Below, piece after piece: positions 62,439 to 63,938 of a stretch of 64,000 nt of DNA; position 1 is the stretch's first letter, and each line of letters starts with the position of its first letter. The stretch is from the NCBI RefSeq assembly GCF_003334765.1, contig NZ_QOWT01000012.1; one strand, 5' to 3'. This DNA is from Escherichia coli (GTDB taxonomy: Bacteria; Pseudomonadota; Gammaproteobacteria; Enterobacterales; Enterobacteriaceae). A program made the position numbers and the translations under genes. The notes under the pieces are model-generated. The model did not search any database and was not told the origin of the DNA. It was given only the letters and a program-made list of their open reading frames with translations.

Positions 62439-63263
62439 ATGATAAAGCCATTTTCTGTGAGGTATGGTCATGTTGACGTTAGAGAGCATGTCCAGCTGAA
62501 TGATCTTAATTCTGATACACGCATGGCATTGTGGAATTGCTTATATCTTTTCCTTTGGACTAACAATCGTCAAACTGCTACAGCAACAAAATGTGCGCAG
62601 TCTGTGTGGATATATTATCTAAATCAACCTGCGGATAATATTCCTCGTTATGAAAGTGGATACAAAAGTGATAAGACGTTGCTGACTGCTATCCGAGATT
62701 ATATATATGGGGAAGCATGGTATTTGGTATATGATTTAATTGAGTTCATCATTGAGAGAACTAATTCATATATTAATCTATCGAAGCATCTCAATTCCAT
62801 CTTTAAAAAGCATGGCGTTGGTTATACCATAATAAATGGTTGTATTACTCCTATTTCAAATGATAACGAAATTGAAAGTGTTCAGAACGCAGTTGATAAT
62901 GGCACTGATTCATCGCGTAGCCATTTCGAAAGGGCGTTACAACTAATGACGGATAGAGAGCAGCCAGACTACAGAAACTCGATTAAAGAGTCTATCTCTG
63001 CAATTGAATCTTTATGCAGGAAAATCACGGGCAATGATAAAGGAACCTTGGGGGCTTGTCTTAAAGCTATAGAGGAAAAAGGATATATACACTCTGCAAT
63101 GAAAGGCGCTTTTAGTCAGCTCTATGGTTATACAAGTGATCAGGGTGGAATACGTCATGCGCTAACAGAAGAAGATGTAAATCCTACCTTAGCTGAAGCT
63201 AAATTTATGTTAGTCACTTGCAGTGCGTTCAGTAATTATCTGTTGTCAAAAATAAGTGATTAA
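62439..63263 (+). CDS. 274-aa hypothetical protein (AT-rich, likely horizontally acquired)
   Basis: Long ORF with preceding GGGGAAG RBS; low GC; no recognisable catalytic motif by eye. Confidence 0.55.
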   Translation: MIKPFSVRYGHVDVREHVQLNDLNSDTRMALWNCLYLFLWTNNRQTATATKCAQSVWIYYLNQPADNIPRYESGYKSDKTLLTAIRDYIYGEAWYLVYDLIEFIIERTNSYINLSKHLNSIFKKHGVGYTIINGCITPISNDNEIESVQNAVDNGTDSSRSHFERALQLMTDREQPDYRNSIKESISAIESLCRKITGNDKGTLGACLKAIEEKGYIHSAMKGAFSQLYGYTSDQGGIRHALTEEDVNPTLAEAKFMLVTCSAFSNYLLSKISD

Positions 63264-63311
63264 TTACAGGTTTATAGTTACGAGTGGGTTAGTTACCCAC
63301 TCCCTTTAAAA

Positions 63312-63938
63312 TTATTCACCAGACTCTAATCTTTTTTCTCTTTTCTCATCTCTCCTTTTTATTGCCAAATCGTGTTGCTCTTGCAGATACGTGCGTTCTT
63401 CGTTTCTATCGCTTGAAGTATATACGTCTGCTTTTACTTTTTTAGCTCCTTGTGCAATAGGTTTCCAATCCTCTCTTATACCTTTAATTTGTTCTGCAAT
63501 TTGCGTCAATGGGCTTCTCGCTCCTAGATAACTTATTCCTTCAAATGTCGCCATGTCATACACATATTCATTTGTTTCTCTATCGTTTGATTTAGGTTTG
63601 CTTGCCCAGCTTATATTAATATTATAAATTTGATCTTTGATTTGTTCATACTTACAGAGATTGCTGGTAAGTGATTGCCCATTTTTTAACACGCTTACCT
63701 TACTAAACGGAATCTCACTTTTTTCTCTATGCTCCGCATTTACTAGTGGAGGATCAAACACAACCTCAACATTATAGGCAGGTGCGTTCCCTGTATTAGC
63801 AATGTTAATATCAAAGTAAAAAGCGGCCCAAGGGTTTGGCTCAAGTGTTACAACTATATGGGGTTGAGCTGATGCGTCAACCATTCTTTTTGTCTCGTCT
63901 GCTCTGAAGTGGTGAAGTGGTTTACTGAATTTGGCCAC
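63312..63938 (-). CDS. 208-aa hypothetical protein with a highly charged C-terminus
   Basis: Convergent with the previous gene; AT-rich; Lys/Arg/Glu-rich C-terminal tail (…KRRDEKREKRLESGE). Confidence 0.5.
   Translation of the reverse strand: MAKFSKPLHHFRADETKRMVDASAQPHIVVTLEPNPWAAFYFDINIANTGNAPAYNVEVVFDPPLVNAEHREKSEIPFSKVSVLKNGQSLTSNLCKYEQIKDQIYNINISWASKPKSNDRETNEYVYDMATFEGISYLGARSPLTQIAEQIKGIREDWKPIAQGAKKVKADVYTSSDRNEERTYLQEQHDLAIKRRDEKREKRLESGE

Follow-up and report, generated by a model that had tools for sequence, protein, structure and literature searches.

A PDC-S32 defence candidate with AbiJ-NTD4 and HEPN-fold domains and its IS911-truncated neighbour in a leuX-proximal cargo slot of Escherichia coli

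RnlA and LsoA, HEPN mRNA endoribonuclease toxins of Escherichia coli (E. coli) that are active against T4, have cognate protein antitoxins, RnlB and LsoB, respectively, which are encoded adjacent to them. [quoted passage not shown] AbiV has been reported as an active RNase and as the toxin of a type III toxin-antitoxin system with an RNA antitoxin (PMC13064643). The AbiJ family, listed as keeping Rx4-6H, has a proposed logic in which the N-terminal domain both senses and restrains and the HEPN domain kills (Anantharaman et al. 2013, PMC3710099). Another source of comparison is PADLOC, to which bioinformatic phage defence candidates (PDCs) have been added; these are mostly unvalidated and were nominated from members embedded in BREX, DISARM or type I RM loci (Payne et al. 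2024, bioRxiv 10.1101/2024.01.29.577857). For phage P2, Rousset et al. 2022 covered the old/tin hotspot, not the Z-region. Here, we analysed a window of 64,000 nucleotides of the E. coli chromosome, near the end of which two convergent ORFs, hereafter referred to as gene A and ORF B, lie beside a tRNA-linked islet. Gene A, a candidate single-gene phage defence, is already named in RefSeq and catalogued as PDC-S32 by PADLOC, and therefore nothing in the case counts as a discovery. ORF B is an IS-truncated relic of a mobile membrane-protein gene.

Gene A (62439..63263, plus strand) is intact and encodes a protein of 274 aa, WP_000594911.1, which RefSeq names 'AbiJ-NTD4 domain-containing protein'. 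The protein can be described as composed of two halves. Residues 4-153, encoded by 62448..62897 of the plus strand, form the alpha+beta domain AbiJ_NTD4 (Pfam PF18863), which aligns with an E-value of 3.8e-26 over model positions 2-151 of 152 and is also matched by 31/31 aligned homologues. The PADLOC PDC-S32 model PDLC04997 aligns to residues 3-272 with an E-value of 5.6e-104 and 346 bits (model positions 8-281 of 285), and a second PDC-S32 model also covers the protein from end to end (E 1e-86). Gene A has 4437 homologues, and comparison of the E. coli gene with its Enterobacter orthologue gave a dN/dS of 0.12 at a dS of 0.24; on these grounds, A is a real gene. When the same comparison is made by half, dN/dS is 0.185 for AbiJ_NTD4 and 0.017 for the HEPN half. 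A sigma-70-like promoter was sought directly upstream of A and none was found. The PDB has no sequence relatives for A or for its C-terminal profile, and a Foldseek search of A against the PDB gave nothing below an E-value of 0.5. NCBIfam gave noise only for both A and B, the weak match of A being to the STM4504/CBY_0614 family, in which the AbiJ-NTD4 prototype is found (E 0.006). A literature search found no experiment on PDC-S32, WP_000594911.1 or their family, and likewise none on P2-EC53 or AbiJ-NTD4.

The second half of A, residues 155-274 (62901..63260, plus strand), is a helical domain of HEPN fold and is proposed to be an RNase effector. It matches no Pfam family, either within the whole protein or as an isolated domain profile, and Pfam searches with the isolated domain gave only sub-threshold DUF4145 and Ymh matches in single family members. 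In the AlphaFold model of A, which was built with 31 homologues and has a pLDDT of 81, the domain is all-helical and has the four-helix up-down bundle of HEPN domains, with an insert between helices 2 and 3. Searches with this domain alone retrieved 4073 cluster representatives, nearly all of 270-300 aa and with the same architecture. Among 260 sequences of the A family, residues K183, E190, G237, R239 and H240 are invariant, and H162, D177, R179, N180, E184, H218 and Y229 are nearly so. The segment GIRHALTEED, which the original prediction had singled out as possibly HEPN-like or Abi-like, is present in A, and its motif G-I-R-H is invariant in 260/260 family members. The codons of R239-H240 are at 63153..63158 (plus strand), and the two residues follow the third core helix and precede the last one. 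The motif Rx4-6H is absent: a histidine is found at positions +5, +6 or +7 after R239 in 0/260 sequences, positions +5 and +6 being E or D and position +7 mostly S. Helix 2 does carry an acidic residue of the Ex3[KR] type, E190, which lies within the predicted helix 178-197 and is found in 260/260 sequences, while position 194 is K, R or Q in 217/260. H218 is located in the helix 2-3 insert. This pattern resembles both the HEPN-T variant, with its D in place of H, and the alternative-histidine variant of AbiV and AF0298. According to the model and the conservation pattern, the C-terminal domain of A is a non-canonical HEPN domain with a dense, strongly constrained polar site. As the canonical histidine of Rx4-6H is absent, RNase activity of A is not assured. 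The earlier guess for the 274-aa protein was right in kind and has support at the fold level.

Among the described systems closest to A is PDC-S32, to which A corresponds in its full-length match and in being a single gene that occurs alone; however, the copy analysed here sits in the cargo slot of a leuX island and not in a BREX, DISARM or type I RM locus. Like AbiJ of Lactococcus, A is a single protein of about 280 aa with an AbiJ-NTD4 domain and a C-terminal HEPN-fold domain (PMC3710099), but the A family, unlike AbiJ, is without Rx4-6H. Abi_C (PF14355) gave no match at E <= 10 with A or with its isolated C-terminal domain and none at E <= 0.1 in the aligned members, and PADLOC at E <= 1 returned only PDC-S32 models for A and no AbiJ model; this comparison of A with AbiJ was made through family models. 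HEPN domains of the AbiV and AF0298 type have no detectable sequence-level relationship to A. Moreover, AbiV is reported to have an RNA antitoxin, whereas searches beside A detected neither a repeat array nor a structured RNA, and A has its own N-terminal domain instead. RnlA and LsoA have no sequence similarity to A and are partnered, while A has no conserved neighbour.

The window covers the E. coli chromosome at tRNA-Leu(CAA) (leuX, 54507-54591), which is its sole tRNA, and the segment 52000-64000 is 100% identical to several complete genomes, such as that of strain LR-64-2 (NZ_AP027595.1). Downstream of leuX there are an integrase of 650 aa and an islet of 7.3 kb. A 28-nt repeat is found in two copies, of which copy 1 (54567-54594) is the 3' end of tRNA-Leu(CAA) and copy 2 (61881..61908, plus strand) matches it at 100%. 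ORFs A and B begin about 530 nt past this second copy and are therefore outside the islet. The sequence of 61881..61908 sits inside an intact tRNA-Leu directly upstream of the module in an Enterobacter locus and in ATCC 11775, the E. coli type strain, and it is the former junction of leuX and the island, which the 7.3-kb islet has displaced. ATCC 11775 and Enterobacter roggenkampii (E. roggenkampii) have the tRNA-Leu, the spacer, A and B in this sequence and are without the islet; therefore, the islet of the window is a later insertion at leuX, which has shifted the module outward. The GC content is 0.35-0.40 over 62250-64000 and 0.51-0.56 in the flanking chromosome. The original prediction had described two strongly AT-rich ORFs, of 274 aa (62439..63263, plus strand) and 208 aa (63312..63938, minus strand), outside a 28-bp repeat, and on all of these points it was accurate. 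It had also suggested that the element may continue past the end of the window. In the annotation of an identical genome, this region contains an IS911 interrupted by an IS30, the fec operon, an IS1 and CP4-44-like remnants, and neither an integrase nor a further att copy is annotated there. The suggested continuation is unsupported.

The segment between the repeat and gene A is a conserved non-coding spacer (61909..62380), which represents the end-piece of an island family and is followed directly by variable cargo. Over 61881-62355, the E. coli and Enterobacter sequences have 13 differences in 476 nt (97.3% identity), and the only sizeable ORF of the spacer is broken by a 1-nt indel. A 96% copy of the spacer precedes different cargo at another E. 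coli locus; elsewhere the spacer is cut by an IS1, and an 83% copy adjoins a tRNA-Gly. The spacer has no Rfam match, no tandem repeats and no phage match, and its RNA fold z-score is +0.4 on both strands. The example of AbiV led us to consider whether the spacer encodes an RNA antitoxin of type III, which we rejected because of the missing repeats, the missing Rfam match and the absence of excess folding energy; furthermore, the spacer is missing at other A loci and precedes unrelated cargo elsewhere. In another E. coli, the cargo after the leuX-spacer junction encodes three proteins, of which one has 190 aa and the motif RNALAH, another is a DUF3800 protein that PADLOC matches to PDC-M04A, and the third has 136 aa; a resolvase and a DEAD helicase come next. 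Since different cargo follows the same leuX-spacer junction, the leuX-proximal slot acts as a place where small defence candidates are swapped. Gene A is found in 469 of 5426 complete E. coli genomes (8.6%), always on the chromosome, and is at least 99% identical in 468 of the 469 carriers, which include Nissle 1917, strain 042, the type strain ATCC 11775 and EHEC O26:H11. The B remnant is found in 478 E. coli genomes, with 477 of the 478 copies at least 99% identical.

The native remnant of B comprises about 197 codons (63312..63904, minus strand) that encode a beta-sandwich and C-terminal helices, and it belongs to the family of phrog_11802 and of P2 Z-region ORF1. B matches phrog_11802 with an E-value of 7e-86 and has 71% identity over residues 13-193 to ORF1 of P2-EC53 (AJ512682), which is located in the 'proviral Z-region' and annotated as 'putative lysogenic conversion protein'. 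Newer RefSeq records call B DUF8453, and searches of Pfam and PADLOC gave no match. The B family has 131 members. The remaining part of the 208-aa ORF (63905..63938, minus strand) consists of a junction with an 8-nt duplicate, TGAAGTGG, found in tandem (x2) at 63905-63921, and of codons 1-9, which lie in the end of an IS911. This left end of an IS911-type element of the IS3 family (63913..64000, plus strand), which is interrupted by an IS30 past the window, is found at 8369 places in 4117 E. coli genomes and corresponds, with 98% identity, to the 'IS3-like element IS911 family transposase'. The homology with the Enterobacter DNA ends at window position 63903, and the match to other E. coli IS911 copies starts at 63912-63913; judged from these alignments, the GTG start at 63938 and codons 1-8 or 1-9 of the ORF are therefore the terminal repeat of IS911. 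RefSeq annotates B as a protein of 190 aa with an internal ATG start.

Full-length relatives of B have 228-234 aa and an N-terminal hydrophobic helix with the consensus ISAxAALLTAVATFFLWRVT. The B of the window is without this membrane helix of about 37 residues, its alignment to the relatives starting at about residue 12-13, and the nearly invariant helix T24-A25-x-A27-T28..L31 is absent. A model of the full-length B of E. roggenkampii (pLDDT 85) has a helix spanning residues 2-49, a seven-stranded beta-sandwich and C-terminal helices, and its structural neighbours are generic Ig-like only. In the full-length relatives, acidic residues precede the hydrophobic stretch and positively charged residues follow it; from this charge pattern, the bulk of the full-length protein would face the cytoplasm. 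The missing 5' part of B was sought in the surrounding 48 kb, including the region beyond the IS, and was not found. The remnant is thus without its membrane helix, native start, RBS and promoter, and in EHEC O26:H11 B is cut again, by an IS600, while A is intact. The 208-aa ORF, as originally drawn, is correct in its coordinates but not as a native gene, given that its start is derived from IS911 and its N-terminal helix is lost.

Genes A and B are convergent, with stop codons 48 nt apart, both in E. coli and in E. roggenkampii, the latter having a full-length B. This layout beside a tRNA-Leu in two genera, together with the AT-rich cargo character of both genes, would suit a two-gene system, composed of a toxin or sensor and an antitoxin or effector, either way round, of which the E. 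coli copy has decayed. Being convergent, however, A and B are not an operon and would not be co-transcribed. The gap contains a hairpin, GTGGGT-tagtt-ACCCAC (63284..63300), read from the sequence, which may be a weak bidirectional terminator, and which a terminator scan did not call. We compared a limited set of about 45 loci bearing A or B for co-occurrence, and what follows on A or B standing alone applies to about 35 loci; for the B family, viral contigs were scanned and contigs encoding relatives were looked up. Within this set, A and B are found together only in the leuX module of E. coli and E. roggenkampii (six loci). B is alone, flanked by the tail-fibre-assembly gene G and the sheath gene FI, at about 16 loci of P2-like prophages and also in P2-EC53 and R18C. 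Klebsiella michiganensis and Citrobacter youngae carry it in integrase islets, next to small genes that are unrelated. A constant convergent small-gene partner of B was also considered and rejected, as Klebsiella, Citrobacter, E. coli FCI56 and R18C differ in the genes next to B, which are mutually unrelated; the 232-aa protein of FCI56 is not a B homologue. Gene A, in turn, directly follows an integrase in Klebsiella pneumoniae and Enterobacter. In Collimonas it adjoins a resolvase, in Acinetobacter it has uvrA on one side and a MatE gene on the other, and in Pectobacterium it is inside a P2-type tail/baseplate cluster, between the genes whose products carry Pfam Phage_base_V and GPW_gp25. 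Xanthomonas provides a further context. A B homologue is absent from all of these A loci (Klebsiella, the Enterobacter integrase locus, Collimonas, Acinetobacter, Pectobacterium and Xanthomonas), and no neighbour of A is shared across eight different genomic contexts. The two families differ about 30-fold in size (4437 and 131), and PADLOC models the candidate represented by the A family as one gene. When E. coli is compared with Enterobacter, dS is 1.16 for B (dN/dS 0.10), about five-fold that of A (0.24), which indicates separate histories of arrival at the loci. Moreover, A is intact and constrained in the 469 E. coli genomes although B has no anchor there and is cut by IS600 in O26. We regard a decayed two-gene system as very improbable and conclude that A and B are independent cargo genes in one slot; the 'convergent gene pair' of the original prediction is a pair by adjacency, and not a functional unit, in view of the separate contexts, the different dS values and the truncation of B.

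Another possibility is that the truncated B, as a soluble protein of 190-208 aa, is expressed and has a function of its own, for example in superinfection exclusion, so that the locus would hold two working genes. Its frame is open, it is a RefSeq CDS, its E. coli copies are nearly identical and its dN/dS against Enterobacter is low. The low dN/dS, however, mostly reflects divergence that predates the truncation, and the near-identity of the copies reflects recent origin and not constraint. With the near-invariant helix, the native start, the RBS and the promoter lost, the 5' part absent from 48 kb and a second cut by IS600 in O26, a working truncated B is very improbable. A different question is whether A is an active nuclease defence at all, as its HEPN-fold domain could only bind a ligand or nucleic acid, like the motif-less binding domains described above, and the protein could act in regulation, in stabilising the mobile element that carries it or in anti-defence. 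The absence of a histidine at positions +4 to +6 after R239 in 260 sequences speaks for this, as does the literature, in which we found no experimental evidence of defence for the A family. On the other hand, AbiV and AF0298-type domains are equally without the motif histidine and are proposed to use an alternative histidine from the same insert (PMC3710099), and AbiV is reported to act as an RNase toxin (PMC3710099, PMC13064643). The domain of A has a dense conserved polar set, R179, N180, K183, E184, E190, H218, R239 and H240, at a dN/dS of 0.017, and therefore does not look degenerate. Gene A is patchily spread: 8.6% of E. coli genomes have it, and its copies are found in islands and, as an inserted accessory gene, in the tail cluster of a prophage, as is typically seen for defence cargo. 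We regard a purely binding or otherwise non-nuclease role of A as unlikely, although the missing canonical histidine keeps it in play.

The explanation that we favour, with moderate confidence, is that A is a stand-alone abortive-infection-type defence candidate and that B is unrelated, truncated cargo in a shared slot. The domain identities, the fold, the conservation pattern, the truncation, the genome contexts and the selection on A form its basis; for A, we infer RNase activity, auto-inhibition, sensing of a trigger and anti-phage function. In this mechanism, the AbiJ-NTD4 domain would hold the HEPN-fold domain inactive and would sense a phage component or an infection-induced change. Once triggered, the HEPN domain would cleave RNA without a metal cofactor, and the cleavage would stop the growth of the infected cell and so abort the infection. 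As HEPN RNases are usually dimeric, A is probably a dimer. The putative non-canonical active site, modelled on the proposals for AbiV and AF0298-type HEPN domains, would comprise R239-H240 at the end of helix 3, the Ex3[KR]-type residue E190 of helix 2 and probably H218. Full-length B would be an inner-membrane-anchored protein that is the lone cargo of P2-like Z-regions, and a deletion associated with IS911 took its 5' end and left the 3' two-thirds. The adjacency of A and B would come from their independent arrival in one variable cargo slot, which is located where the island borders leuX.

Bolder readings can be proposed for the three parts of the locus. The C-terminal family linked to AbiJ-NTD4, which has more than 4000 cluster representatives and is not modelled in Pfam, may form a HEPN clade of its own; its members may cut RNA by an R-H dyad together with a histidine of the helix 2-3 insert and may be self-contained sensor-toxins. 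The B family (DUF8453/phrog_11802) may have gone unrecognised as a gene for exclusion or defence with a membrane anchor, as it is the sole cargo of the P2 Z-region in many prophages. More speculatively, the spacer, which is conserved at 97% and lies ahead of different cargo genes at leuX and at a tRNA-Gly, may have a function, for example in capturing or expressing cargo, within an island family that has not been described. As a group, these readings are unlikely.

The importance of the locus is limited by the fact that A is already in RefSeq and PADLOC. The annotation of the neighbouring ORF is corrected, B being an IS911-truncated relic, and the leuX-proximal slot of E. coli is seen to exchange small defence candidates. 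Gene A itself is a convenient test case, as it belongs to an abundant family, has a HEPN-fold domain without the canonical catalytic histidine and is available in 469 E. coli genomes.

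The non-coding spacer that lies between tRNA-Leu (leuX) and gene A, which codes for a 274-aa AbiJ-NTD4 and HEPN-fold protein, occupies positions 61909-62380 of the window. Further copies are found in Enterobacter roggenkampii (locus L004, 7640-8107), in E. coli NZ_CM187540.1 (locus L046, 6001-6471) and in locus L047 (6001-6257), where a copy of 83% identity adjoins a tRNA-Gly. Between E. coli and Enterobacter the spacer is 97.3% identical, yet dS at the synonymous sites of the adjoining gene A is 0.24. The spacer was searched for an RNA family, for repeats and for excess structure, and none of these was found. 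In E. coli NZ_CM187540.1, the same spacer is followed by different cargo (L046, 6533-8406), which fills the leuX-spacer slot that is held elsewhere by gene A and B, the latter being a 208-aa ORF truncated by IS911 in the window. Three proteins are encoded there: one of 190 aa that contains RNALAH, a canonical HEPN-like motif of the Rx4H form; a DUF3800 protein that matches PADLOC PDC-M04A (E 1.5e-21); and one of 136 aa. Genes for a resolvase and a DEAD/DEAH helicase come next.

The 7.3-kb islet, a later insertion at leuX, contains defence-like cargo of its own. A DUF4062 protein of 281 aa (window 59296-60141, plus strand) matches the PADLOC candidate PDC-S60 (E 5.8e-27), the match covering the N-terminal 170 positions of a 906-position model. 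An HTH protein (60844-61401, plus strand) matches models of restriction-modification 'control protein' and of CapH-type regulators. The islet integrase (54640-56592, plus strand) is unusually long, with 650 aa, and an N-terminal extension of about 250 aa precedes its integrase core. A 568-aa relative of this integrase is found in a Citrobacter youngae islet, which also holds a B homologue. In the O26 lineage, a P4-like satellite with a primase-helicase gene is located between leuX and the spacer.

The module of spacer, gene A and B has also been hit by insertion sequences. In E. coli strains G1/2 (L045, 2440-3812), G6/7 and G8, the 3' end of gene A carries an IS1A insertion, while in the O26 lineage (O26:H11 11368; L044, 4313-5983) IS600 lies within what is left of B; these insertions are independent. 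At the IS911 junction of the window (63905-63921), TGAAGTGG is present twice in tandem. Of the two copies, the inner one forms the end of IS911, whereas the outer one repeats the terminal 8 nt and belongs neither to the IS nor to any recognisable part of B.

Both genes have relatives in phage-type surroundings. In Pectobacterium carotovorum (L051, 7001-7849), a gene A homologue of 42% identity has inserted, alone, as an accessory gene into the P2-type tail/baseplate cluster of a prophage or tailocin; the products encoded on either side of it carry Pfam Phage_base_V and GPW_gp25. In the Z-region of P2-EC53 (AJ512682, L002), the depositors annotated left and right inverted repeats of about 100 nt (3-115 and 1983-2073) around ORF1, a member of the B family, which suggests that the B-family gene is mobile as a cassette within P2-like phages.
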